64,000 nucleotides of DNA from an uncultured Gammaproteobacteria bacterium. Its GTDB lineage: Bacteria > Patescibacteriota > Patescibacteriia > Patescibacteriales > GWE2-39-37. The position numbers and the translations under genes are program-made. The notes under the pieces are model-generated. The model saw nothing but the letters and a program-made list of their open reading frames with translations, made no database searches and had not been told where the DNA came from. Position 1 is the first letter of the stretch, and each line of letters opens with the position of its first letter. Below, piece after piece: positions 3,256 through 52,020 of this stretch. Location: positions 341,496 to 405,495 of the forward strand of contig CAYUCS010000001.1 of NCBI GenBank assembly GCA_964443495.1. Direction: 5' to 3'.

Positions 3256-4032
3256 TTAAAGCGGTATGTCGGATTTTAGGATCTTGCCGATCGGAGTGAA
3301 ACTGGCGGCATATTTGGAAAGCGGCTTTTCAGCGGGTTTCTGGGCCGGTGAGGCAGGAGCCGCCGGTTCGGCCTTTGGAGCCGTCACGGCAACCGGCAGG
3401 TCGGCCGGAACAGCGGCAGGCTGGATTTCGCGGATCGGGGCGATCGTGACCGCGGTCGGGGCCGGTGCCGGGTCGGCAATGGCCGGGGTGCCTGATTGCT
3501 GGGTGATGATGGTCTCGGTCGGTTGCGGGGCGGTTGGCGCCATGTCAGCGTAGGTCTCCATGTCGGTCGAAAGTATTTTGTACTGCACGCCGGTTTCAGC
3601 GAAGATATCGGCGGTGCGTCCGGAGCCATGGTAATTCTTCTGGCAGACGACGCGTTTGATGCCGGCATTGATAATCATCTTGGCGCAGGTATAGCAGGGG
3701 GTCATCTTCTGGTAGATGGTCGCGCCGTCAAGCGAGATTCCCTCGCGCGCGGCCTGGCAGATGGCGTTCTGCTCGGCGTGGATAGTGCGGATGCAGTGGC
3801 GGCTCTGGTGGCCGTCAGCATGAGTGACGGTGTGCATCTCATGGCCGATCTCGTCGCAGTGGGCAATACCGGCTGGTGAGCCGACATAGCCAGTCGCGAT
3901 GATGCGCTTGTCCTTGACGATGACGCAACCGAGACGCCCGCGGTCGCAGGAACCGCGGCTGCCGACCATATCGGCGATGTTCAAGAAGTACTCATCCCAC
4001 GAGGGGCGGTGGTGAGGAGTCGGATTTTCCAT
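3256..4032 (-). CDS. dCMP deaminase with a long Pro/Ala-rich C-terminal tail
   Basis: HAEQNAI and PCYTCAKMI zinc-binding motifs of the cytidine/dCMP deaminase fold; the last ~110 aa are low-complexity P/A/T-rich. Confidence 0.8.
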   Translation of the reverse strand: MENPTPHHRPSWDEYFLNIADMVGSRGSCDRGRLGCVIVKDKRIIATGYVGSPAGIAHCDEIGHEMHTVTHADGHQSRHCIRTIHAEQNAICQAAREGISLDGATIYQKMTPCYTCAKMIINAGIKRVVCQKNYHGSGRTADIFAETGVQYKILSTDMETYADMAPTAPQPTETIITQQSGTPAIADPAPAPTAVTIAPIREIQPAAVPADLPVAVTAPKAEPAAPASPAQKPAEKPLSKYAASFTPIGKILKSDIPL

Positions 4033-4181
4033 AGAAAAAAATGTTTAACTTGACTAAACCCCCTTGTTTATTGCGTTTTTGTGTTTGTTTGTGGAAAAGT
4101 CCTTTTTAGCCCTTTTATTTTATCAGAGAGGTGAGTTAAAAGCAAACCCAGTTTTTGCGTCGGTAATGCTTTATTTTTAGC

Positions 4182-4218
4182 AAAAAAAACAGGGACGGCT
4201 GGGCCGTCCCTGTTTTTT
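4182..4218. terminator. Bidirectional rho-independent terminator
   Basis: CAGGGACGGC / GCCGTCCCTG 10-bp stem flanked by A8 and T6 runs. Confidence 0.7.
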
Positions 4219-4221
4219 AGA

Positions 4222-4977
4222 TTATTTCTGCTCTTGGGAGATGAATTTTTTCATGTCCGCTACCGAACTCATAAGTTGGGCAGGGAATATGATGGTCGAG
4301 TTTTTCTCGATCGAAATCTCAGCCATGGTCTGGAGGTTCCTGAGCTGCAAGGCGATCGGGTGGGCGGCGATGACATCGGCCGCTTCGCCCAATTTTTGCG
4401 AAGCCATCAGTTCGCCCTCGGCAGCGATGATCTTGGCGCGTTTTTCACGTTCGGCTTCGGCCTGCTTGGCCATGGCGCGCTGCATATTTTCCGGCAGCTC
4501 GATATCCTTGATTTCGACGACCGAGACGACTACGCCCCAGGGCTCGGTGTGGGTGTCGAGAACTTTCCTGATTTCGCCATTGATGACATCGCGTTCGGAT
4601 AGGATTTCATCGAGCTGGAAACGGCCGACGATGTTGCGGACCGTGGTTTGCGCGATCTGGTCGATGGCGCGCATCACGTTCTCGATGGCTACGATGCTTT
4701 TGATCGGGTCGATTACTTGGTAATAGGCGACGGCCGAGACATCAACCGAGACATTGTCTTTGGTGATGATCTTTTGCGGAGGAATCGGCAGAGTGATGGT
4801 GCGTAGGTCGATTTGCCGCATCCAGGAGATGTAGGGGATGATCCAAGTCAAGCCCGGCTCCTTGATGCCGGTAATTTTGCCCAAGAGGAAGACTACGCCT
4901 TTTTCATACTGCTGGACGACCCTGAAGCCGGGCAGTATCAAAAAGACAAACACGAGGAACAGGATTGTGTAGCCCAT
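4222..4977 (-). CDS. SPFH/Band-7 (stomatin-prohibitin-like) membrane protein
   Basis: N-terminal TM helix, then VVQQYEKGVVFLLGK...GLTWIIP...DNVSVDVSAVAYYQV and a C-terminal AEAEREKRAKII coiled coil. Confidence 0.8.
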   Translation of the reverse strand: MGYTILFLVFVFLILPGFRVVQQYEKGVVFLLGKITGIKEPGLTWIIPYISWMRQIDLRTITLPIPPQKIITKDNVSVDVSAVAYYQVIDPIKSIVAIENVMRAIDQIAQTTVRNIVGRFQLDEILSERDVINGEIRKVLDTHTEPWGVVVSVVEIKDIELPENMQRAMAKQAEAEREKRAKIIAAEGELMASQKLGEAADVIAAHPIALQLRNLQTMAEISIEKNSTIIFPAQLMSSVADMKKFISQEQK

Positions 4978-5105
4978 AGATTTCCGTTGGCGTGATGCCT
5001 TAGTGATTTATTCTGATTTAACCTTAGCAAATGCGTGGCAAAATGCAAATAAAAAAGGGGAACGCGAGTTCTCCCTTGGCCCATGCGGGCGACGTCTATA
5101 AGATG

Positions 5106-5291
5106 TTAGCGCCGAGGCAGTAAAGGCGGCACTGTGCCTGGGTGCGATTTCGCCATTTTTTTTCTGGCGTCATTTTGGGGATCAGTGGTTCCCAATAGCA
5201 GATTCGATGCAATTTCCTTGATCGCTTCTTTTGAAAGTCCGATCACTTCCTGAGCAAAAAACTTTAATTGGCCGATGCTTGATTGTCTCAT
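5106..5291 (-). CDS. Small hypothetical protein (61 aa)
   Basis: GGAGGG Shine-Dalgarno 5 nt before the ATG; stem-loop plus T-run downstream on the minus strand (~5050-5080); no recognisable domain. Confidence 0.4.
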   Translation of the reverse strand: MRQSSIGQLKFFAQEVIGLSKEAIKEIASNLLLGTTDPQNDARKKMAKSHPGTVPPLLPRR

Positions 5292-5336
5292 GGTGCCCTC
5301 CAATGAGCATTTTTTACTAAAGTAACATTAATTTAT

Positions 5337-5369
5337 AAAAAAAACAAGCCCCGAAAGGGGCTTGTTTTG
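5337..5369. terminator. Bidirectional terminator downstream of rplA
   Basis: ACAAGCCCC-GAAA-GGGGCTTGT hairpin with A-run and T-run. Confidence 0.7.
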
Positions 5370-5386
5370 AGTATGTTCGGTGCGCT

Positions 5387-6082
5387 TTATAATGACACTT
5401 TGATGCCAGGGCCCATGGTCGAGCAGATGACCACGTTCTTGATGTAAGCGCCCTTGGCCTTAGCTGGCTTCAACTTCTTGATGATATCGACTACGGCCTG
5501 GAAATTCTCAGCCAACTTGGCAGTCTCGAAAGAGGTTTTGCCGATCGGCATGTGGATATTGGCGGTGTCGTCGTTCTTGAAGCTGATCTTGCCTTTCTTG
5601 ATTTCGGCGATCGCCTTGGCCGGGTCAGTGGTAACGGTCTCGTTCTTCGGTGAAGGCATCAGGCCGCGGGTACCAAGAATCTTGGCGATCGGGGCCAGGA
5701 AGCGCATCATTTCCGGAGTGGCGATGGCGACTTCGAAATCAGTCTTTTCAGTTTTCTTGATTTCTTCGATCAGCTCTTCGCCGCCGACAATGTCGGCGCC
5801 GGCTGCCTTGGCGTCAGCCTGCTTGTCAGCGCTGACGAAAGCGGCCACCTTGACGGTCTTGCCGATACCGTGAGGCAGGCTGACAGCGGAACGGATCTGC
5901 TGGTCGCCCTTCTTGGTGTCGATGCCGAGGCGCAAGTGGACCTCGATCGATGAATCGAACTTGGTGGCCGAGAATTTCTTAGCCATCTCGATGGCTTCAG
6001 CGATCGGATAGGCCTTGGCCTTGTCAAAATCGTAAGCCTTTTTCTTGGACTTTTTTACGGTCTTTTTGGTTGTCTCAGTCAT
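5387..6082 (-). CDS. rplA: 50S ribosomal protein L1
   Basis: YPIAEAIEMAKKF...IEVHLRLGID...QIRSAVSLPHGIGK pattern. Start uncertain: ATG at 6082 preferred, and the ORF also opens at a GTG at 6118. Confidence 0.9.
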   Translation of the reverse strand: MTETTKKTVKKSKKKAYDFDKAKAYPIAEAIEMAKKFSATKFDSSIEVHLRLGIDTKKGDQQIRSAVSLPHGIGKTVKVAAFVSADKQADAKAAGADIVGGEELIEEIKKTEKTDFEVAIATPEMMRFLAPIAKILGTRGLMPSPKNETVTTDPAKAIAEIKKGKISFKNDDTANIHMPIGKTSFETAKLAENFQAVVDIIKKLKPAKAKGAYIKNVVICSTMGPGIKVSL

Positions 6083-6133
6083 GCGTTTGTAGTGGTCTGC
6101 GTCCAATCGGACTCCCACGTTAATATTGAATGA

Positions 6134-6559
6134 TTAATCTTTGATTTCTACGCCCATCTGACGAGCGGTGCCGGCGATGGTCTTCATCGCGGCCTCGACG
6201 CTGGTGGTGTTCAGGTCCTGCAGCTTGATTTGCGCGATCTCGCGCAGCTGCGCGCTGGTCAGGGTGCCGACCTTCTCGATGTGGGCCTTCTTCGAACCGC
6301 TCTTGATGCCGGCGAACTTCTTGATCAATTCGCCTGCCGGAGGGGTTTTGGTGATGAAGGTGAAGGAGCGGTCGTCATAAACGGTGATCACTACCGGAGT
6401 GATTTCGCCCATGCGGTCCTTGGTTGCGTCGTTGAATTGCATGCAGAAGGCTTGGATCTGCACGCCGTGCTGGCCCAAAGCCGGACCGACTGGAGGTGCA
6501 GGATTGGCCTGGCCGGCAGGGATCTGCAATTTGATCTGTGCTAGTATTTTCTTAGCCAT
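6134..6559 (-). CDS. rplK: 50S ribosomal protein L11
   Basis: [33 protein letters not shown]... canonical L11 N-terminus. Confidence 0.95.
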
Positions 6560-43066: not shown

Positions 43067-43148
43067 ATATTGGGTTACAATAGCAAACGAGGCTTCAAGG
43101 CCTTATTTGTATTAAGGCTGGTCTATTTGAGGCCGCAAAATATAATAT

Positions 43149-43219
43149 TCGGGGATCGTCTAATGGTAGGACAGCGGGTTCTGGTCCCGTCAATTGGGGT
43201 TCGAGTCCCTATCCCCGAG
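43149..43219 (+). tRNA. tRNA-Gln(CUG): tRNA-Gln (anticodon CUG)
   Basis: TCGGGGA/TCCCCGA acceptor (U1-A72), GCGGG-TTCTGGT-CCCGT anticodon arm, TGGGG-TTCGAGT-CCCTA T arm. Confidence 0.85.
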
Positions 43220-43227
43220 CAAATAAA
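43203..43227 (+). repeat. Direct repeat copy 1 (tRNA-Gln 3' end plus 8 nt)
   Basis: GAGTCCCTATCCCCGAGCAAATAAA, identical to 43319-43343. Confidence 0.9.
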
Positions 43228-43299
43228 ATCAGTCCCTTTTGGGGCTGATTTTATTTTGTTTGTGGGATAGGGCCGAAAGAAAGTCAATGCGTGAGGCGT

Positions 43300-43343
43300 G
43301 GGGCTTCCGCCCCGGTGAGAGTCCCTATCCCCGAGCAAATAAA
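43300..43343 (+). repeat. GGGGCTTCCGCCCC hairpin plus direct repeat copy 2 (tRNA-Gln 3'-end fragment, att-like)
   Basis: Hairpin at 43300-43313, then GGTGA, then an exact 25-nt copy of the tRNA-Gln 3' end at 43319-43343. Confidence 0.85.
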
Positions 43344-43385
43344 TAAAGAGCACCTCCTCAAGAGGCGCTCTTTATTTATTTTTTT

Positions 43386-43425
43386 AGGAATGGGACTCGA
43401 ACCCGCCTACCGGCAGGCAGGCGGG
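43386..43425 (-). other. Third tRNA 3'-half-like fragment (different tRNA) behind a GC hairpin, inverted orientation
   Basis: Minus strand reads CCCGCCT-loop-AGGCGGG then TTCGAGTCCCATTCCT; no matching 5' acceptor strand upstream. Confidence 0.6.
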
Positions 43426-43501
43426 CAGCAGTGAAAAAAATTTGCACAGCACACTTTATTTATTAAAAAGAAACCCGCGCTTGGCTGGCGCGGGGCTGAA
43501 T

Positions 43502-43948
43502 TTATGGGGCGATAGAGAAAAGTTCGGCTGGCGCGTCGGCAATAACGCATTGGGCGATACCCGACCAGCCACCCCTGGCTTCGTATTCACCAATCCAGAT
43601 CTCACCTTTGCGCTCGAAAGAAAATCGAATTTCGTTAGACTTGGCTATCGTTTCATAGACAGACGAATCCAGTGCTTTCGAATACATTTTTTTGAAATAT
43701 AGCTCATCTGGCAAAAGCCTGATGTTGGACAAGATCGACAAGCCAAGGCGGTCAATCATGTATCCAGGCACCTCAAGCTCATCAAGTTGCTCGGGCGGTT
43801 CCGTTGAAATTATACCGGAAAACATGATTCTACAGTAATCTTTCTTTATGAGCATCGCGGGTGTGGAAGCAATGCCCAGGCTGTGGCGTTGATCGTCGGT
43901 GAAATCGGTTGATTTTTGAAAAAAGAACCCTTGGATGATTTTTTTCAT
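43502..43948 (-). CDS. Hypothetical protein (148 aa)
   Basis: GGAGGTG Shine-Dalgarno upstream of the ATG; no domain recognised. Confidence 0.5.
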   Translation of the reverse strand: MKKIIQGFFFQKSTDFTDDQRHSLGIASTPAMLIKKDYCRIMFSGIISTEPPEQLDELEVPGYMIDRLGLSILSNIRLLPDELYFKKMYSKALDSSVYETIAKSNEIRFSFERKGEIWIGEYEARGGWSGIAQCVIADAPAELFSIAP

Positions 43949-44138
43949 CTTTGCACCTCCGTTGTTGTATTCAAGATTTATTCAGATGTTAGTCAATTTT
44001 TATATTTATGTCAATTTACTTAACTAATTTATTGTGCTGGCCGAGGAGCGTGAATATGATTGACTGCGGGAGTAAAATATGTTTGAATATGTAATCTGCT
44101 CATTTCATTAAAAATAAACCAACTCAGGAGGTGGAAGG

Positions 44139-45329
44139 ATGAAAATAGATACTTCGAGACGGCTTGAACAGGCTTTGGCGCTTTGGGAGAACTTGAATTA
44201 CTACTATCGTGTCGTGGCCGAAAGGTGCATCGCGGTCAAGCAGAGCCATCGTTTCCCGATGGAAGAGATGTACAAGAACAGCGATAAGCTGAGAAAAGTC
44301 TTGCTCGGAAGCTATTCCTCGAATCCGTCTGATCGTTTCGACTTTTCGGATTTTAGCGGAAGCACGGAAAAGAGCATGCACCTTTTCGGGAATCTCGGAC
44401 TTTTGCCGCTGTATCTGCATCACTGGACGGTCTCATCGAGGCGCGTCTATCATCTGTCACAGAATCTCCAAACCCTGCTTCGATGGACATCGCTTGATAA
44501 TGTGCGTTGGAGCGATATCGAGTGGCCGTTCAACTCCTTTGTCGTCTCTCTTGAGACGCCCATCGTTGACACCAATGGCGATAAATTCGATTGCATGCTG
44601 TTCACAAAAATTGATGCGATCGACGAAGGAGTTGTCAGGATGTCGGACATCTCGATCACTCTTTTTTCTTCGAGATTAGAGGGTCTTGAAACTTTCACCA
44701 GTGTCCAGCGGCAGAATCTGCAGCGGGCGTATAACGAGTGCAAGGCAAAAAAGGTCAAGAAGATGATGAGCGTCATTGACAGTCTTCAGCCCGGGCCGCA
44801 TGCGACTCGACCGGTAAGGATGTATTACTTCGACGCCATGAAAAATCGCGATATGCTCGTATCCGAAAGTGCCGAAGTGCTTAATGAGCGGCTCGTAAAA
44901 GAGCACCAGCTTGGCAGCTATGACGTTTTCGATGCTGCCCTTAACATCGTTGCCGGTCTGGCCCTTTATCTTGGCTCGCAGGATGCGGACAGCGAAGAGC
45001 GGACCGAGTGGCGCCGTGCCTCTGTTCCTGGCGAACGGAATCATCGGCACATCAACAACACTGCCCAGGTCTGCGAAGTCTTTTGCACGAAAAGCCTTAC
45101 CATCAGGGATCAGGAGTTTATCTCGGCAATCAATCGCCAGTTGGAGATAAGCGGACGCATGGGCATGCCGGTGCATTGGCGGTGCGGCTATTGGAGACGG
45201 CCGCCAGGAATGGGTTGCATTCCGATGGCCAAAAGATCGGTCCGCGTCAGCCCGAGCCTGGTCAACTCCGATCTCATTGATGAGTTTACGGACAAGGGCT
45301 TGCCGGTCGGCTCATGCCACAGGATTTGA
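44139..45329 (+). CDS. Hypothetical protein (396 aa), first gene of an orphan operon
   Basis: CAGGAGGTGGAAGG Shine-Dalgarno; basic C-terminal block PVHWRCGYWRRPPGMG; no domain recognised. Confidence 0.6.
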   Translation: MKIDTSRRLEQALALWENLNYYYRVVAERCIAVKQSHRFPMEEMYKNSDKLRKVLLGSYSSNPSDRFDFSDFSGSTEKSMHLFGNLGLLPLYLHHWTVSSRRVYHLSQNLQTLLRWTSLDNVRWSDIEWPFNSFVVSLETPIVDTNGDKFDCMLFTKIDAIDEGVVRMSDISITLFSSRLEGLETFTSVQRQNLQRAYNECKAKKVKKMMSVIDSLQPGPHATRPVRMYYFDAMKNRDMLVSESAEVLNERLVKEHQLGSYDVFDAALNIVAGLALYLGSQDADSEERTEWRRASVPGERNHRHINNTAQVCEVFCTKSLTIRDQEFISAINRQLEISGRMGMPVHWRCGYWRRPPGMGCIPMAKRSVRVSPSLVNSDLIDEFTDKGLPVGSCHRI

Positions 45330-45370
45330 GCGTGCTCCACGCAAGCCAACGCACAAAGGAGGTAGTTAAG

Positions 45371-45637
45371 ATGGAACAGCCATTCAATTTGACGTCGTCT
45401 GAATTCAGCCCCGCTGGCAAGGTGGTTGGCCACCTGTATTATCACGGCATCCTGAAATGCTTGCTGCACGATGATGAATATTCCGGTTCGCCTAGCGAGG
45501 GCGGTTCGCATTTCCTGCGCCTACACGTCAGCCGAGCGGACCTGGAAGCTTTTCTCGACCTCATCGAGGAATATTATGCGGCCGCTGGCGAACGTTTTGC
45601 CGGCGGCGTAGCTGCCTTGCGCCAGAAAGTCGCGTGA
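45371..45637 (+). CDS. Hypothetical protein (88 aa)
   Basis: AAAGGAGGTAG Shine-Dalgarno 7 nt before the ATG at 45371. Confidence 0.55.
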   Translation: MEQPFNLTSSEFSPAGKVVGHLYYHGILKCLLHDDEYSGSPSEGGSHFLRLHVSRADLEAFLDLIEEYYAAAGERFAGGVAALRQKVA

Positions 45638-45700
45638 TATCCGTTCACGTCAAATAAACGCCCCCCGATTATTGAATCGGGGGCAAGGAGGAGGCAGGAC

Positions 45701-46102
45701 ATGCAACAGTCGAAGAATTTTGGCGAAGCGAAAGAGCGAGGATTGGAAGGCTACGGAACGATGCCCGGGCACGTGCTCGTCTTGAAACACGGCCTGATGG
45801 GCGCTTTTCCGGCATTGATACGCGAAGGTCTTGGGCTGTTCATCTGCACTGACCTCGAAGTCCTCAAGAAGGTCTGGGAGCTCTTGCCGAAGCGGCAAGC
45901 TAAGCTGCTCGAGCTTGAGCTGTGCGCGAACTTGGCCGAGAAGGTCGCCTTCAACCCCCAGCTTGGCGACGAGGCCCAGCCGATCAGAATCCTTGACGAA
46001 GAAGACTTCCGTATCATATCCTCGCGGCCCGACGCATTCATGTGGTCGCCGGGGCTACTCTCGCTGGACGGCGAGGGCGAAGTTCTTTCACCATTTGTCT
46101 GA
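45701..46102 (+). CDS. Hypothetical protein (133 aa)
   Basis: CAAGGAGGAGG Shine-Dalgarno; followed by a terminator. Confidence 0.55.
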   Translation: MQQSKNFGEAKERGLEGYGTMPGHVLVLKHGLMGAFPALIREGLGLFICTDLEVLKKVWELLPKRQAKLLELELCANLAEKVAFNPQLGDEAQPIRILDEEDFRIISSRPDAFMWSPGLLSLDGEGEVLSPFV

Positions 46103-46120
46103 AATCAACCCACTGACGGA

Positions 46121-46148
46121 AAACCCGCTTCGGTGGGTTTTTCTTTTT
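46121..46148 (+). terminator. Terminator ending the 44.1-46.1 kb operon
   Basis: AAACCCGC-TTCG-GTGGGTTT followed by a T-rich run. Confidence 0.65.
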
Positions 46149-46224
46149 GCGCGACCGCAAACTTAAAACGTTCGGCCATAAAAAAACTCCCGGACTAAGT
46201 CCGGGAGTTTTATATGAGTAGAGG

Positions 46225-46422
46225 TTAAGCGAGCTTAACGTTCACTGCGTTCATTCCTTTCGGCGATTCCTCTGATTCGAAAGTGACCTGATCACCTTCG
46301 TTGATCTGGTCAAAGCTGACGCCGACCAGGGAATTGCTGTGGAAGAACAGGTCCTTAGCTTCGCCATCGATGGCGATGAAGCCGAAACCTTTGTCAGTCT
46401 TCTTTTTGATAACTCCGTTCAT
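46225..46422 (-). CDS. cspA: Cold-shock protein (CspA family)
   Basis: KGFGFI (RNP1) and LFFHSN (RNP2-like) motifs; 65 aa. Confidence 0.9.
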   Translation of the reverse strand: MNGVIKKKTDKGFGFIAIDGEAKDLFFHSNSLVGVSFDQINEGDQVTFESEESPKGMNAVNVKLA

Positions 46423-46514
46423 GATGTAATATCATTACTTTGTAAAATGGTAAATCAAACATTTTTAAAGCTCGACGAATTCTCTTTTTCAAAACATTTT
46501 TTTCACTTAGATAT

Positions 46515-46543
46515 ATTGTAGCATAAAATTAAAAAATTGTCAA
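46515..46543 (-). promoter_or_regulatory. Sigma-70-type promoter for the csp gene with a ~90-nt leader
   Basis: Minus strand: TTGACA (46543-46538), 17-nt spacer, TACAAT (46520-46515). Confidence 0.55.
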
Positions 46544-46560
46544 GAATGCCGTTTGCCGGG

Positions 46561-46589
46561 TTGATTTTATGCGCTTAACACGGTAATAT
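46561..46589 (+). promoter_or_regulatory. Promoter for the 40-aa basic ORF
   Basis: TTGATT, 17-nt spacer, TAATAT. Confidence 0.45.
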
Positions 46590-46614
46590 TAGTATTATTC
46601 ATAAATATCCAAAT

Positions 46615-46737
46615 ATGGCTAAAAGAAGCACTGGTGTTGGTAGCAAAAAGACCGGCAGCCCGCACAAGACCGCCAAGCGCCTGGAAACGAAGCGTGTCAG
46701 GCTTGAAGAATTGGCAGCAAAAAGGAAGAAGCGCTAA
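46615..46737 (+). CDS. Highly basic 40-aa microprotein (not in the ORF track)
   Basis: MAKRSTGVGSKKTGSPHKTAKRLETKRVRLEELAAKRKKR*; has its own promoter and a downstream hairpin plus T-run (~46749-46778). Confidence 0.4.
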   Translation: MAKRSTGVGSKKTGSPHKTAKRLETKRVRLEELAAKRKKR

Positions 46738-46794
46738 TAGATACACTGCGAATAAAGACACACCCAGAAGGTGCGTCTTTTTTTGTCTTGCTTA

Positions 46795-47190
46795 TTACAT
46801 CTCGGCATCTGGGGATGGCTCCATCAGTCCGAAACGGTTGCCCTCGGTATCTTTGGCGCCGGCAAACCAGCCGACCCCGGGAATCTCCGACCGTTCCTTG
46901 GTGATGGTGCCGCCGGCTTTTTTGACGGCTTCGACCGCCTTGTCCAGATCCTTGACTTCGACGGTGCAGTCATAGAGATAGAATCTGTCCGAACCGTCCT
47001 TTGGCCGTTCGTATAGGCCGCCGTTGATGCCTGGCTCGCCTTCTTTGCCAGTGATGAGACCCCAGTAGTCCATGCCGCTCTCTTCCTTTTTCATCCATTG
47101 CACGATTTCCCACCCCAGGGTTTCCTGATAGAATTTCTTGGCGCGCTCGATGTCATCGGCTTGGATTTCGAAATGAATTACTCTGTTCAT
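46795..47190 (-). CDS. VOC/glyoxalase-bleomycin-resistance family protein
   Basis: VIHFEIQADDIERAKKFYQETLGW...GWFAGAKDTEGNRFGLM. Confidence 0.75.
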   Translation of the reverse strand: MNRVIHFEIQADDIERAKKFYQETLGWEIVQWMKKEESGMDYWGLITGKEGEPGINGGLYERPKDGSDRFYLYDCTVEVKDLDKAVEAVKKAGGTITKERSEIPGVGWFAGAKDTEGNRFGLMEPSPDAEM

Positions 47191-47206
47191 ATGGTTGATT
47201 TAATTA

Positions 47207-47782
47207 TTAGGTAGCTTGTTTTTCAAGCTTGACGGCCAGGCTTATGACCGTGTTGATGACCAGCTCGGCGTTCTTCGCGTGGAGCTCCTCGTTCAGCAAT
47301 TGGCCGTTCTCGTCGTAGGCCGCCCAGATAAAGGGAATAAGGACTTGGTCACGGACGCTGTACATCTTGAGTTCGGCCGCGACCAGGCGTTGCTGTTCGA
47401 CCGAGCGCGCACCGCCGGCCGCACCGCCATAGCCGACGTAGCCGATGGCTTTGCCGTTCCACTCCTTGTAACCGTAATCATAGGCGTTCTTGAGCGCGGC
47501 CGGGTAACCGTGGTTGTATTCCGGCGTAACAATGATGAATCCGTCGCCGTCGTCGATTTTCTCGAGCCAGCGGTTGACCGCCGGGTCGGCATGGGGTCCT
47601 TGCCGTGTCCCGGGCAGCTCGGCATCAGCGAATATCGGTAGCGGATAGTCGCGGAGATCGAGGAGTTCAAAATCGGCCCGGTCGTTCTTGCTGGCGATCG
47701 CCATGAACCACTCGGCCACCTTGGCGCCTGCTCGCCCTTCGCGGATGCTGGCTAGGATGACTTTTATTTTCGGTTTGTCCAT
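47207..47782 (-). CDS. NAD(P)H-dependent FMN reductase family protein
   Basis: KIKVILASIREGRAGAKVAEW...FIIVTPEYNHGYPAALKNAYDY. Confidence 0.75.
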   Translation of the reverse strand: MDKPKIKVILASIREGRAGAKVAEWFMAIASKNDRADFELLDLRDYPLPIFADAELPGTRQGPHADPAVNRWLEKIDDGDGFIIVTPEYNHGYPAALKNAYDYGYKEWNGKAIGYVGYGGAAGGARSVEQQRLVAAELKMYSVRDQVLIPFIWAAYDENGQLLNEELHAKNAELVINTVISLAVKLEKQAT

Positions 47783-47941
47783 ATGATTATCTTACTGCCC
47801 ATGTAATTTACCTCCCCGGAATTAAATAAATGTTAAGACGCCTCGGTTGACTAAAAAGCTGCTGATTGGTAAGCTTTCGTGATAATTCCTCGGCTTCGGA
47901 CCGAGAATCCGGCTCATTAATACAACGCAAAGGAGGAAGGT

Positions 47942-48538
47942 ATGGCAACGGAAGGTTGGAAATCGGAAATATTCATCAGTGCCGACATCGAGGCGGACGG
48001 CAGGGTGCCGGGCATCAACTCCATGCTCTCGCTGGGCTCCGTGGCCCTGCGGGTCAATGAGTCCGGGTATGAGGAGATAGCTACTTTCGAGGCCAATCTG
48101 CTCGAACTGCCCGGAGCCGTGCGCGACCCCGAGGTAATGGCCTGGTGGCAGAAATTCCCCGAGGCTTGGGACAGGTGCCGGACTGGCGCTCGGCCGGCAG
48201 CAGATGTCATGCATGATTATCTTGCCTGGATCAAAGGCTTGCCAGACCGCGCCGGCCTGGTCGCCTATCCGGGGGCTTTCGATTTCATGTTCATCTATTG
48301 GTATCTCTACGCCCTGACCGGACAGCGGCCGTTCAATGCCTCGGCGCTGTGCGTCAAGTCGTATGCCATGGGCATGTTGGGTGAGGCTTCGTGGCTTGAC
48401 TTCGAGCGCAAACGGATACCGGAAAAGTATCTTTCATCCCACCCGCACGACCACACGCCGCTTAACGACTCGATCGAACAAGGACAGATCTTCGCCGCCC
48501 TCTATCGGGACAACGTCATTGGCCGAACAAGGCGCTAA
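47942..48538 (+). CDS. DEDDh 3'-5' exonuclease (Rv2179c-like exoribonuclease family)
   Basis: SADIEADG (ExoI), AYPGAFDFMF (ExoII), HTPLNDSIEQG (ExoIII H-x4-D); AAAGGAGGAAGG Shine-Dalgarno. Confidence 0.65.
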   Translation: MATEGWKSEIFISADIEADGRVPGINSMLSLGSVALRVNESGYEEIATFEANLLELPGAVRDPEVMAWWQKFPEAWDRCRTGARPAADVMHDYLAWIKGLPDRAGLVAYPGAFDFMFIYWYLYALTGQRPFNASALCVKSYAMGMLGEASWLDFERKRIPEKYLSSHPHDHTPLNDSIEQGQIFAALYRDNVIGRTRR

Positions 48539-48606
48539 GGCGTCGTTCGTGCTTTGCTCCCGCCGCATCGGTTTCCGGTGCGGCTTTTTTCATCCGGAAG
48601 GCAGGC

Positions 48607-48635
48607 ATTGATATATGTCTAAAAATGTGTTATCT
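48607..48635 (+). promoter_or_regulatory. Promoter for the 48.7-50.7 kb operon
   Basis: TTGATA, 17-nt spacer ending in TGT, TATCTT. Confidence 0.4.
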
Positions 48636-48678
48636 TAGTAAGAATTTTTTTGCTCATTAAACAATCCGGGAGGGTGAC

Positions 48679-49602
48679 ATGGAAAAGGCATTGCAGGTCT
48701 TCAGAACGGCTTTGGGGTTGAAGCATAGGAACCTGATAAGACGCTGGCGCTGGCTGGAACGGAATTATCATCCGGAACATGACGAGGAAATCAGGTCGAT
48801 CCTGGAGGAATTAAAAGCGGTATCGCTTACTTTGAGGAATGAGGTCGGGTGGTCGTACATCGACGACCTGTCGACGTTCATGAACCTGCAAATCAGGCAC
48901 AAGATGGACGACCTCAAGGCTCGAGTCATGAATCTCGTTGATCCGCCTGGCCAGGCCGCAGTTTCGAAACTGGTGTCGGAAATAAGGCAATTGATCGCCG
49001 CGTCCAGCGAAGAGCTCAAGCAGTATAAAGGCGGCTCCAACTGCCTCGACGCCAAGGACTATGAGATGAAAATTTCATTGCTTGAGTCGATTTCAAAGAA
49101 GCCGCTGACTAGCGGCGAAGTCCGTGCCGTAGTCGACGATTATGAATCTTCGCAGGGCTACATGATCCATAACTTCGAAGAAGAAGGGGGCGATCCGATC
49201 GTCGAATGCATCCCGTTGCCTAAAGAGCCTGACGAGGATGACATCTTAGGCCAGCACGGCATAGTAATGGGGTTCCGTGTCGGCTATATGGCGATGGGCA
49301 GCTGGATATTTCCGATCGTCGAAACCGAGGATGACCGTATCGGCATACCGATCGAGAAATTGCTTGCCGAATTCGGCGGCTGTCCCAGGGGACGCGTAAA
49401 TGACATGGAAAAAAGGCAGAATGATGGTTACGATATGTACCGCAAGCGGTGCAGCTGTTGCCTGAGGCACGTCTGCCCGGGCGGAGATTTGTATTTCGCC
49501 TGGAACCTGAAAGCGTTGGCGGCGAAATTTTTACGGGTCAAAAACCGATCGCAAGAGTCAATCAGGGCCTTGCTGGATTTCAGCGGCTATCAAGCTTCCT
49601 AA
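48679..49602 (+). CDS. Hypothetical protein (307 aa) with a weak J-domain-like N-terminus and a C-terminal Cys cluster
   Basis: GGGAGGGTG Shine-Dalgarno; LIRRWRWLERNYHPEHDEE (HPE where a J domain has HPD); RKRCSCCLRHVCPGG. Confidence 0.55.
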   Translation: MEKALQVFRTALGLKHRNLIRRWRWLERNYHPEHDEEIRSILEELKAVSLTLRNEVGWSYIDDLSTFMNLQIRHKMDDLKARVMNLVDPPGQAAVSKLVSEIRQLIAASSEELKQYKGGSNCLDAKDYEMKISLLESISKKPLTSGEVRAVVDDYESSQGYMIHNFEEEGGDPIVECIPLPKEPDEDDILGQHGIVMGFRVGYMAMGSWIFPIVETEDDRIGIPIEKLLAEFGGCPRGRVNDMEKRQNDGYDMYRKRCSCCLRHVCPGGDLYFAWNLKALAAKFLRVKNRSQESIRALLDFSGYQAS

Positions 49603-49613
49603 GGAGGGAAAAA

Positions 49614-50081
49614 GTGATCGATATCAAGGGGAATATCAAGGGGGTCGAGGGCGACCCGTCGAATTTCAGGTTGCGCCGTTTCAGGTTCCGCGGAGTCGAG
49701 TGCGAGTGCATGGAGTCATTACTGCAGGCTTTTAAGTTCGAAAACCGGGAAGTGCAGCAGTTCATCTGCCAGCTTCGACCGCGCATCGCCAAGCTTATCG
49801 GGACAGAGCGAAACCAGGTCTGGCAAGCCTCCTTGACCTTGTGGTGGGACGACCAGCCTTATCATCGGTTATCGCCGGAGTATCAGGAACTGTTGGACGA
49901 GGCTTATGAAGCACTGTCCCTGAACCAGGACTTCGTCAACGCTTTGCTCGCGACCGGCGATGAAATGCTGACCCACAGCATCGGCGAAAGGGATCCGACC
50001 AGGACCGTCTTGACCGAGGAGGAGTTCTGCTCGCGCCTAATGAAAATCAGGCGCATCAAACAAGGGAGGGAAGCATGCTGA
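49614..50081 (+). CDS. NADAR (YbiA/DUF1768)-like protein, tentative
   Basis: AAGGAGGG Shine-Dalgarno plus GTG start; PSNF...FRGVECECMESLLQAFKF...ALLATGDEMLTHS mirrors the NADAR blocks LSNF / SxEHxxQAxKF / LLxTGxxxLxE. Confidence 0.45.
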   Translation: MIDIKGNIKGVEGDPSNFRLRRFRFRGVECECMESLLQAFKFENREVQQFICQLRPRIAKLIGTERNQVWQASLTLWWDDQPYHRLSPEYQELLDEAYEALSLNQDFVNALLATGDEMLTHSIGERDPTRTVLTEEEFCSRLMKIRRIKQGREAC

Positions 50082-50305
50082 CTATCGAACAGATGAATAA
50101 AGCGGCGCGGATTATCGAAATCGAAGGGGCAGACGGCTATGTGGCGGCGGCCAGGGAGTTTGGCCGTGAAGCGGCGATGCTGCTTCTGGTGGCCCACCTG
50201 CGCAGGGCGGCCGGTTCGATGGATTCTTTTCCGCCGGATAGCGCCATCGACGCGTCGGTCATCGAAACTGTCGATCGCATAATCAAGGAGAAAGCCCATG
50301 CCTAA
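50075..50305 (+). CDS. Hypothetical protein (76 aa)
   Basis: GGGAGGGAAG Shine-Dalgarno; 7-nt overlap with the upstream gene. Confidence 0.5.
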   Translation: MLTIEQMNKAARIIEIEGADGYVAAAREFGREAAMLLLVAHLRRAAGSMDSFPPDSAIDASVIETVDRIIKEKAHA

Positions 50306-50705
50306 GCGCACTATGGAACAGATGATTGCCCGCCGGATCAGGGAATTCAACGCCCTGCCGCCCGAACGGCGTATCCGCCGCACGCAGCTGCTACGCCAGC
50401 TGTTGCGTCTCGAAGGAGTGGTGAACGTCATAATCTATGGGCGCGCCTGCTACTACCCGACGCTCAAGAAGATGCTTGCCGCCCCACCCTGGCACGAGAA
50501 GGCCCATCCGAGGTATCTCGAAGTCTTTACTTCGACCGGCAAGAGCAAGGAAGGCTTCCTTGCGATCAATGAGCCGGCCGGAGAAGGGACGCTCGAACAT
50601 GAAAGGGTCCCGTTGGCCGACATCAAGCTTGGGTCGGACCAACTGCTCAAGGGGATAGAAGAAAACCGCTTCCTCTTGCAGATAACCGTGAATTCCAAGC
50701 AATGA
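50298..50705 (+). CDS. Hypothetical protein (135 aa)
   Basis: AAGGAGAAAG Shine-Dalgarno; 8-nt overlap with the upstream gene; Arg-rich N-terminus. Confidence 0.5.
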   Translation: MPKRTMEQMIARRIREFNALPPERRIRRTQLLRQLLRLEGVVNVIIYGRACYYPTLKKMLAAPPWHEKAHPRYLEVFTSTGKSKEGFLAINEPAGEGTLEHERVPLADIKLGSDQLLKGIEENRFLLQITVNSKQ

Positions 50706-50725
50706 CAGTCATCAGCTGATTTGTC

Positions 50726-50760
50726 AGGCGCCCCGGCTTATGCCGAGGGCGCCTTTTCTT
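50726..50760 (+). terminator. Terminator ending the 48.7-50.7 kb operon
   Basis: AGGCGCCC / GGGCGCCT outer stem with inner CGGC/GCCG, then TTTT. Confidence 0.65.
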
Positions 50761-50826
50761 AACCGTTAGTTAATCCAACAGAGCCAAGATGATGATACGC
50801 AACGAATAAGAGAGGGGGTGAGAAAT

Positions 50827-51015
50827 ATGATGTCGCTAAAATGCCAGGATATGGGCATGGATTGCCGTTTCGTGGCCCATGGCCATACCAAGGACGAAGT
50901 CAAGAAAGAGATGATGGATCACGCCATGATGGCGCATCCGGAGGTTTTAGGCGGTCCGCCGGAAGAAATGGAGCAGATGGAAAAGCTTATGGACGAAATG
51001 ACCAAGGAGGATTGA
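50827..51015 (+). CDS. DUF1059-like small metal-binding protein
   Basis: MMSLKCQDMGMDCRFVAHGHTKDEVKKEMMDHAMMAHPE; GAGGGGG Shine-Dalgarno 8 nt upstream. Confidence 0.55.
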   Translation: MMSLKCQDMGMDCRFVAHGHTKDEVKKEMMDHAMMAHPEVLGGPPEEMEQMEKLMDEMTKED

Positions 51016-51120
51016 CGGGCCAGGCAATCGATGGCCCGTGTCGGCTGGCTGGACTTGGAAACGGTAAAAAGGTACAATTAAGCAGTAATCATTAAGAAAT
51101 AAGACAGTCGAATCAACCTG

Positions 51121-51693
51121 ATGTACATATTTTTTGACACGGAGACGACCGGTTTGCCGAAGAATTGGAAGGCGCCGATTACGGATTCCGACAACTGGCC
51201 GCGAATGGTCCAGCTAGCTTGGCAGCATTACGACGAAAAGGGCAATCTCTTGAACAGCAATAATTATCTGATCAGGCCTAGCGGCTTCACCATTCCTGAA
51301 GCGGCTTTCAAGATCCATGGGATTTCGACTGAGCGGGCTTGGAATGAGGGTCGCGAGCTTGAGCAAGCTTTGATCGATTTCAGCCGGGCGACGGCCGAGG
51401 CCAAGTTCTTGGTAGCGCATAATATCGCTTTCGATCTGAAAATCGTCGGCGCGGAGTTGCTCCGTCTCGGCTTGCCGGTAGAGGCTTTGGATATGCCGCA
51501 GCTTGATACCATGAAGGCGGGTGCGAGCGTCTGCCAGCTTCCCAGCCTGTACGGCGGCTTCAAGGCGCCGAGCCTGACCGAACTGCATCGCCATCTTTTC
51601 AATGAGGATTTCGACGGCGCCCATGATGCTTTGGCCGACGTCGAGGCTTGTGCCAGATCGTTCTTCGCTTTGAAAGAGCGTGGCGCCATCTGA
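51121..51693 (+). CDS. DnaQ/epsilon-like DEDDh 3'-5' exonuclease
   Basis: FFDTETTGLP (ExoI), LVAHNIAFDLKIV (ExoII), HDALADVEA (ExoIII). Confidence 0.8.
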   Translation: MYIFFDTETTGLPKNWKAPITDSDNWPRMVQLAWQHYDEKGNLLNSNNYLIRPSGFTIPEAAFKIHGISTERAWNEGRELEQALIDFSRATAEAKFLVAHNIAFDLKIVGAELLRLGLPVEALDMPQLDTMKAGASVCQLPSLYGGFKAPSLTELHRHLFNEDFDGAHDALADVEACARSFFALKERGAI

Positions 51694-51732
51694 CATCCGC
51701 GATTTGAAAATATCAGCAGTAATCAAAAACAT

Positions 51733-52020
51733 ATGACAAAAGCCAAATCAACCAAAGAAAAATTTTCCGAAGAGGAATTCTCCAAGGAATTCAAGGTTTC
51801 CGGCGAAAAGCTGGTCAAAAAAGTGAAAGAACTCATCAAGGAGGGCAACGCCCGCAAGATTATCATCAAGGACGAGAAGGGTAAATCGATCATGGAGTTG
51901 CCGGTGACCGTAGGCGCGGTCGGCGTGATTCTGGCTCCGGTCTTGGCCGCAGTCGGAGCTTTGGCCGCCCTGCTGACCGAATGCACTATCGTGGTGGTCA
52001 AAGAGAAGAAGAAAAAATAA
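51733..52020 (+). CDS. DUF4342-like protein
   Basis: EFKVSGEKLVKKVKELIKEGNARKIIIKDEKGKSIMELPVTVGAVGVILAPVLAAVGA. Confidence 0.5.
   Translation: MTKAKSTKEKFSEEEFSKEFKVSGEKLVKKVKELIKEGNARKIIIKDEKGKSIMELPVTVGAVGVILAPVLAAVGALAALLTECTIVVVKEKKKK

Follow-up and report, generated by a model that had tools for sequence, protein, structure and literature searches.

The DNA analysed here (hereafter the window) is 64,000 nucleotides long, all coordinates below being window positions unless an L-numbered genome is named, and it carries on the plus strand a cluster of four genes of which the second encodes a protein of the NADAR superfamily. We propose that this locus is probably a stand-alone eraser of guanine ADP-ribosylation, of the type of phage T4 AdfN (gp30.3) and inherited with the chromosome, and not a self-contained toxin-antidote module. 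The latter had been put forward in a sequence-only reading of the same DNA and is unproven, as no toxin partner was identified in the cluster. The genes are numbered 1 to 4 in the direction of transcription (48679-49602, 49614-50081, 50075-50305 and 50298-50705; 307, 155, 76 and 135 residues).

Gene 2 starts with GTG at the conserved MIDIKG beginning of the family core, without N-terminal extension, and matches the Pfam profile PF08010 (Phage_30_3) with E=1.1e-49 and 168.3 bits (cut-off 36) over profile positions 8-137 of 138; the general NADAR profile PF08719 gives E=0.0025, which is under its cut-off. By its sequence, gene 2 clearly belongs to PF08010, the phage clade (gp30.3/AdfN) of the NADAR superfamily, and the earlier description of the protein as NADAR-like was thus confirmed. 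It shares 33% identity with T4 gp30.3 (E=1e-17), and its residues E34 and K41 align with E36 and K43 of the T4 protein while H121 aligns with the T4 histidine. E34 (codon 49713-49715) lies in the motif MESLLQAFKF together with K41 (49734-49736), and H121 (49974-49976) lies in LTHS, all on the plus strand. The three residues are invariant among 23 diverse family members, and the glutamate and lysine are also invariant in alignments A3 and A4. The statement that the SEH residues of the NADAR blocks had been replaced was therefore misleading, since the catalytic E34 and K41 are kept and the histidine of LTHS is a signature of the gp30.3 clade. When the PF08010-family profile was compared with the PDB, the best match was E. 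coli YbiA (2b3w), a weak one (E=0.098) covering the SNF...E...QAxKF catalytic region. A longer version of gene 2 (210 residues, starting at 49449) was dropped, given that it overlaps gene 1 and that the orthologues begin at MIDIKG.

T4 gp30.3 has been renamed AdfN and described as a NADAR-superfamily ADP-ribosylglycohydrolase that clears DarT1-modified DNA, with E36 and K43 essential and with a fold relationship to YbiA/NADAR (bioRxiv 10.1101/2024.07.11.602962). Removal of ADP-ribose from guanine in DNA by T4 AdfN has also been shown in vitro, and a charged position in the last strand marks the clades, being His in gp30.3, Glu in YbiA and Asp in the DarT-linked (BC4488-type) NADARs (PMC11125620).

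Comparison with longer relatives shows genes 2 and 3 to be the two halves of one ancestral gene, coding for a NADAR domain and a C-terminal domain of ~70 residues. Indeed, the nearest longer relatives, P0005 (Candidatus Falkowbacteria), P0004, P0023 and P0015, are fused proteins of 222 residues, all with a C-terminal extension of ~70 residues matching gene 3, and tblastn finds gene 3 at 53-61% identity within these fused genes. The linker DNA reads AGGGAAG-AACTCT-TGCTGACTATCGA in L004 and AGGGAAG-CA-TGCTGACTATCGA in the window, which corresponds to a 4-nucleotide deletion in the window. This deletion shifted the frame, thereby creating the TGA (50079-50081) that ends gene 2 as well as the ATG (50075) that starts gene 3. 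The fission junction (50064-50081, plus strand) also holds a Shine-Dalgarno sequence, GGGAGGG (50064-50070), four bases 5' of the gene-3 ATG. Logan assembly L002, which is independent, has the same split structure. The C-terminal domain has been deleted in two sister genomes, L001 (82% identity in gene 1) and L036, where the NADAR gene is coupled directly to gene 4. Hence, the four open reading frames of the sequence-only reading are all present, but the description of them as a four-gene operon was overstated, genes 2 and 3 being halves of one ancestral gene; nor are the four inherited together, as only genes 2 and 4 are shared across all five related genomes (the window, L001, L003, L004 and L036) and gene 3 has been lost in the sister genomes.

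The detached domain evolves faster than its neighbours in the lineage of the window. Its identity is 52-60% between the window and L003/L004 compared to 76.5% between L003 and L004, whereas the NADAR domain (69-72% and 74% respectively) and gene 4 (61-65% and 66%) are roughly equidistant across the three genomes. Gene 3 and the C-terminal domain belong to no recognisable family in Pfam and profile searches, and no solved relative was found. Programmed -1 frameshifting that would re-fuse genes 2 and 3 was considered and is unlikely, with no slippery heptamer at 50050-50081. On a side note, the called start of P0004 (237 residues; L004 6342-6390) is probably 15 codons too early, a Shine-Dalgarno sequence and an ATG at 6388 leading to the conserved MDIRGD start and a 222-residue product.

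The cluster sits in the chromosome of a Falkowbacteria-like Patescibacterium and has been inherited vertically. It is flanked by DnaX and patatin genes on one side and by HD_4, GyrB and FtsW on the other, with CSD and L25 also among the housekeeping genes around it. The arrangement of the window is syntenic with that of a Falkowbacteria genome, and because these housekeeping flanks are syntenic the locus is taken to be chromosomal and not part of a prophage. Moreover, the same chromosomal site is occupied in all five related genomes. In L003 and L004, where the NADAR gene at this site is of the fused 222-residue kind, the order reads FMN reductase (minus strand), NADAR, gene 4, DUF1059, RNase_T, DUF4342, HD_4 and GyrB.

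The stand-alone character of gene 2 was examined in the cluster and at other loci of the family. Genes 1, 3 and 4 gave no match to ADP-ribosyltransferase (ART), DarT or defence models in Pfam, PADLOC, NCBIfam and PHROGs, and the PADLOC scan of the whole window showed no DarT model among the 25 of 78 families listed. The hidden Markov model searches for NADAR, DnaJ and ART families, as suggested in the earlier reading, thus returned the first through PF08010 and neither of the other two. PF08010 relatives were found in 25 bacterial species genomes (GTDB), which include Patescibacteria, Geomonas/Citrifermentans, Melainabacteria, Clostridia and others. At these 25 other bacterial loci gene 1, gene 4 and any conserved partner are absent and the neighbours are variable, so that the census of neighbourhoods yielded no partner common to the family; at five of these loci, a scan of ten neighbouring proteins revealed no ART. 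The C-terminal extensions of the NADAR domain are diverse among the relatives.

Given its family, gene 2 would strip guanine bases in DNA of ADP-ribose, the reaction seen in vitro with T4 AdfN and other NADARs. Its role may be that of an orphan antitoxin or repair enzyme shielding the DNA of the cell from ADP-ribosyltransferases encoded elsewhere, whether by phages, by neighbouring or host cells or by an unlinked gene. In that case, targeting or regulatory accessory roles would be most plausible for the C-terminal domain and gene 4, while gene 1 would be co-transcribed by accident of its insertion site and not as a functional partner. Several points weigh against this proposal. The ART search covered the cluster and the sampled neighbours at other loci, and the cluster is a small part of a 772-kb genome. 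Furthermore, neither T4 AdfN nor E. coli YbiA relieved the toxicity of DarT1 in uninfected cells (PMC11125620), and for this reason family membership cannot predict substrate specificity in vivo; the real substrate of gene 2 could be RNA or a metabolite. Finally, the linkage of gene 4 to the NADAR gene is strict, and gene 4 lies downstream of it and is unassignable, so that it might conceivably be a toxin.

Gene 4 is a young orphan always found after this NADAR. A search of 5.8 billion proteins returned two homologue clusters, to which tblastn added one copy in L004, and every copy lies directly 3' of the NADAR gene at the same syntenic site in the five genomes, with translational coupling in three of the five. 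It is absent from the more distant genomes that bear a fused NADAR gene; in the JGI metagenomes only the sister-genome copy and a chance ParB-like match were seen, and the viral contigs searched held no relative of gene 4 or of the C-terminal domain. No meaningful match to gene 4 was obtained in Pfam, PHROGs, NCBIfam, PADLOC or a PDB profile search. Weak similarities to a 'Mac' capping motif (E 0.002-0.14) and to the N-terminus of an O-methyltransferase (3ntv, E=0.024) were put down to chance or to helical resemblance.

This strict association invites the view that the NADAR protein is an antitoxin and gene 4 its toxin, together forming a new type IV-like toxin-antitoxin (TA) system or writer-eraser pair in which gene 4 would be a minimal ART or another nucleic-acid toxin. 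We consider this unlikely. Beyond the exclusive position of gene 4 downstream of this NADAR and its translational coupling in three genomes, it draws on the invariant residues R49, S79-T80 and E100-x-E102, which follow the order of the R-S-E motif of ARTs and fall on or just after predicted strands; this is a reading of motifs and not a statistical result. The spacing of the gene-4 residues is 30 and 21, while that of the R-S-E motif in ARTs is roughly 40 and 40. Moreover, ART matches are absent from all the profile searches mentioned above and hhalign against T4 Alt returned a probability of 0.2%; gene 4 resembles an ART at the level of motifs and is kept as a lead of low probability. The AlphaFold2 (AF2) model of gene 4 has a predicted local distance difference test score (pLDDT) of 53, too poor for a test of its fold, which makes the fold search uninformative and its Foldseek matches noise. 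In addition, the locus is fixed and syntenic across about 30-35% protein divergence, unlike mobile TA cassettes. The more elaborate version, in which gene 4 would be an ultra-minimal nucleic-acid ART held in check by the NADAR protein with gene 3 as a specificity subunit, is very unlikely.

It is also distinctly unlikely that gene 2 acts on another substrate, such as ADP-ribosylated RNA or tRNA or the reactive intermediates of the riboflavin pathway, as proposed for YbiA, which would tie the locus to RNA or metabolites and not to DNA repair or immunity. In favour of it, a link of NADAR/YbiA proteins with riboflavin intermediates, among other processes, has been made (PMC11125620), weak but concordant matches of GatB/YqeY type (described below) are obtained with the gene-1 profile, and RNase_T-type exonucleases and a protein with an HD_4 domain lie near the locus. 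However, gene 2 belongs to the His-bearing gp30.3 clade and not to the Glu-bearing YbiA clade, and the sole tested member of the gp30.3 clade hydrolyses guanine-ADP-ribose on DNA (PMC11125620; bioRxiv 10.1101/2024.07.11.602962). The gene-1 matches, for their part, fall short of significance and are not seen again in other members of its family.

Considering the 861 phage records, mostly of T4-like phages, in which PF08010 relatives occur, the cluster might be regarded as the remnant of a prophage or mobile element carrying a phage anti-DarT counter-defence gene. Such an origin is highly improbable with the housekeeping flanks and the shared site in five genomes described above, no phage gene near the locus and a GC (guanine plus cytosine) content close to that of the neighbours. 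Furthermore, a counter-defence gene of this kind would be phage-encoded and used during infection, whereas the locus is chromosomal and syntenic.

The least credible proposal, barely worth entertaining, is that of the earlier reading, with gene 1 as cognate modifier or toxin and gene 2 as antidote. Gene 1 does lie immediately 5' of gene 2 (11 nucleotides) under the same promoter; it comes before the NADAR gene and gene 4 both in the window and in L001, and its 3' end is found just 5' of the NADAR gene in L036. However, the orthologous locus of L003 and of L004 lacks gene 1, as do 25/25 of the other PF08010 loci, the four homologues whose surroundings were checked have no NADAR gene nearby, and gene 1 shows no ART profile or fold. 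Those four homologues are found among unrelated housekeeping genes, including FemAB and a Mur ligase. The AF2 model of gene 1 is a confident one (pLDDT 81, predicted template modelling score 0.79) with a helical bundle in the N-terminal part and a beta/Cys domain in the C-terminal part. Foldseek searches with it against the PDB and BFVD gave no match below E=0.04 and none that was an ART, and a PDB profile search gave no ART either. In L003 and L004 the NADAR gene is directly downstream of the promoter that in the window is conserved upstream of gene 1; therefore, gene 1 was inserted between promoter and NADAR gene in this lineage. Its GC content is slightly low (52.1% vs 56-59% in the neighbours).

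The family of gene 1 is small. A word-indexed search of 5.8 billion proteins returned two matches, the protein itself and one relative at 82%, and an exhaustive HMMER search returned 10 representatives among 1.84 billion proteins. Its invariant residues are C235, C258, C260 and C266 in FGGCPxG...CxCxxRxxCPGG, E215 in ETE, W209 and P32. The cluster CSCCLRHVC noted earlier forms part of this conserved four-Cys motif. As for the J-domain-like helix with HPE, the histidine is unconserved, the family motif being Y-x-P (only Y30 and P32 are kept), and Pfam gives no DnaJ match, hence the J-domain assignment was rejected. As a minor observation, residues ~77-157 of gene 1 show weak helical matches of GatB/YqeY type (tRNA-binding), namely PHROG 1460 'tRNA amidotransferase' (E=0.041) and PDB YqeY 8xjg (E=0.091), which centre on the motif LLESIxxxPLxxxEVR. 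A GatB/YqeY-like tRNA-binding domain was not retained on these two matches and is kept as a lead only.

Compared with T4 AdfN, the proposed stand-alone eraser belongs to the same Pfam family with the catalytic Glu, Lys and His kept and is, in the same way, a single-domain core without the N-terminal extension of DarG1 type and without an adjacent toxin, that is, an orphan. It differs in residing at a conserved syntenic site of a Patescibacteria chromosome and not in a lytic phage, in its ancestral fusion to the C-terminal domain of ~70 residues, in its pairing with a lineage-specific protein of 135 residues and in its host, whose DNA is presumably not hydroxymethylated. With the DarT1-NADAR systems (DarTG1) it shares a NADAR hydrolase that presumably reverses guanine ADP-ribosylation and an organisation of small, tightly coupled genes. 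However, no DarT or other ART was detected at the locus, which is not mobile, and gene 2 has H121 instead of Asp in the last strand and no N-terminal extension. The YarT-YbiA pair of Chondromyces crocatus (PMC11125620) resembles it in that a NADAR gene stands beside a very small protein, which could in principle be a minimal ART; yet the last-strand residue of the YbiA clade is Glu and YarT belongs to the H-Y-[E/D/Q] ARTs, whereas in gene 4 an ART finds support from neither profile nor fold.

Previous descriptions of the gp30.3/AdfN clade are of phage NADARs, found mainly in T4-like phages. Here, it is stably inherited in reduced Patescibacteria genomes, sometimes with two copies in related genomes, and without a linked toxin. 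This supports the idea that bacteria can use the reversal of guanine ADP-ribosylation in DNA for housekeeping or immunity, with the C-terminal domain and gene 4 as candidate specificity factors. The locus also captures a clean gene fission, in which start, stop and Shine-Dalgarno sequence were created through a 4-nucleotide deletion, alongside loss of the domain in sister genomes. It is to be seen as a modest new example, and would be a new kind of system only if gene 4 proved to be a toxin.

Regarding the layout of the unit, the four open reading frames, the 11-nucleotide gap between genes 1 and 2, the 7-nucleotide overlap of genes 2 and 3, the 8-nucleotide overlap of genes 3 and 4 and the GTG start of gene 2 were all found where the sequence-only reading had placed them, and all four frames are backed by conservation in other genomes. 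Upstream of the GTG start, overlapping the stop of gene 1, lies AAGGAGGG. The promoter and terminator that had been predicted were also recovered. The promoter-like site is sigma-70-like (48608-48636, plus strand; TTGATA-17 nt-TATCTT with a TG extension) and the pattern TTGAwAwAT...TGTTATyTT is kept in the window, L001, L003 and L004 (alignment A6). At the 3' end, an intrinsic-terminator-like hairpin and U-tract (50726-50761, plus strand) consists of a hairpin at 50726-50754 followed by UUUUCUU. A simple terminator scanner failed to pick up this hairpin, which was shown by folding with shuffled controls (free energy -29.6 kcal/mol, z = -5.0; none of 200 shuffled sequences reached a fold this stable). 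The Rfam scan of 46000-52000 found no RNA family. The 5' boundary of the unit is set by a terminator-like hairpin (48562-48584, plus strand; 10-bp stem with 8 GC pairs, then a T-run) that closes the upstream DEDDh exonuclease gene (47942-48538). This exonuclease, which thus has its own terminator, is lineage-specific, being absent from L003 and L004, and matches the PADLOC model 'Effector, Exonuclease' PDLC00753 (E=9e-22); another DEDDh exonuclease is found at 51121-51693.

Further observations concern the surroundings in the related genomes. A NUDIX hydrolase lies between DUF1059 and RNase_T in L003 (9518-9985) and L004 (7905-8372), but the window lacks it (50818-51693). Free ADP-ribose is a compound that NUDIX enzymes can break down, and the loss of this one may be relevant to the locus. 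The related genomes also hold a second PF08010 paralogue between patatin and a cold-shock gene (L003 4731-6199; L004 1366-2369), which has 200 residues and a weak zinc-finger-like tail and is preceded by an orphan of 103 or 117 residues. In its place the window has, at 43100-46102, orphans of 148 (minus strand), 396 and 107 residues without Pfam matches, followed by a 133-residue gene (45701-46102) with 73% identity to L003; this region looks like a variable islet beside the studied locus.

At the other PF08010 loci several local arrangements were seen. In L014, L015 and L024 (~4000-6460 in each) the shared order is a cold-shock gene, a zinc-ribbon-rich membrane protein of ~390 residues, a protein of ~100 residues and the PF08010 NADAR. 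L030 and L034 (2090-7017) have a 389-residue PF08010 fusion after a protein of ~1000 residues, with a weak PRTase-CE match (E=0.002), and one of ~215 residues, an arrangement that could be a polymorphic-toxin/immunity set. In L016 (5739-9275) DUF4326, a PF08010 NADAR and a DNA polymerase III alpha-like gene are tightly packed, which resembles a phage replication module, the genome bin being labelled Cellvibrionaceae. Finally, in the more distant genome L039 (6001-7797) the fused gene of NADAR and C-terminal domain stands near a cold-shock gene and GyrB, followed by a 61-residue gene and a Fic-domain gene which are likely a Fic toxin-antitoxin pair.

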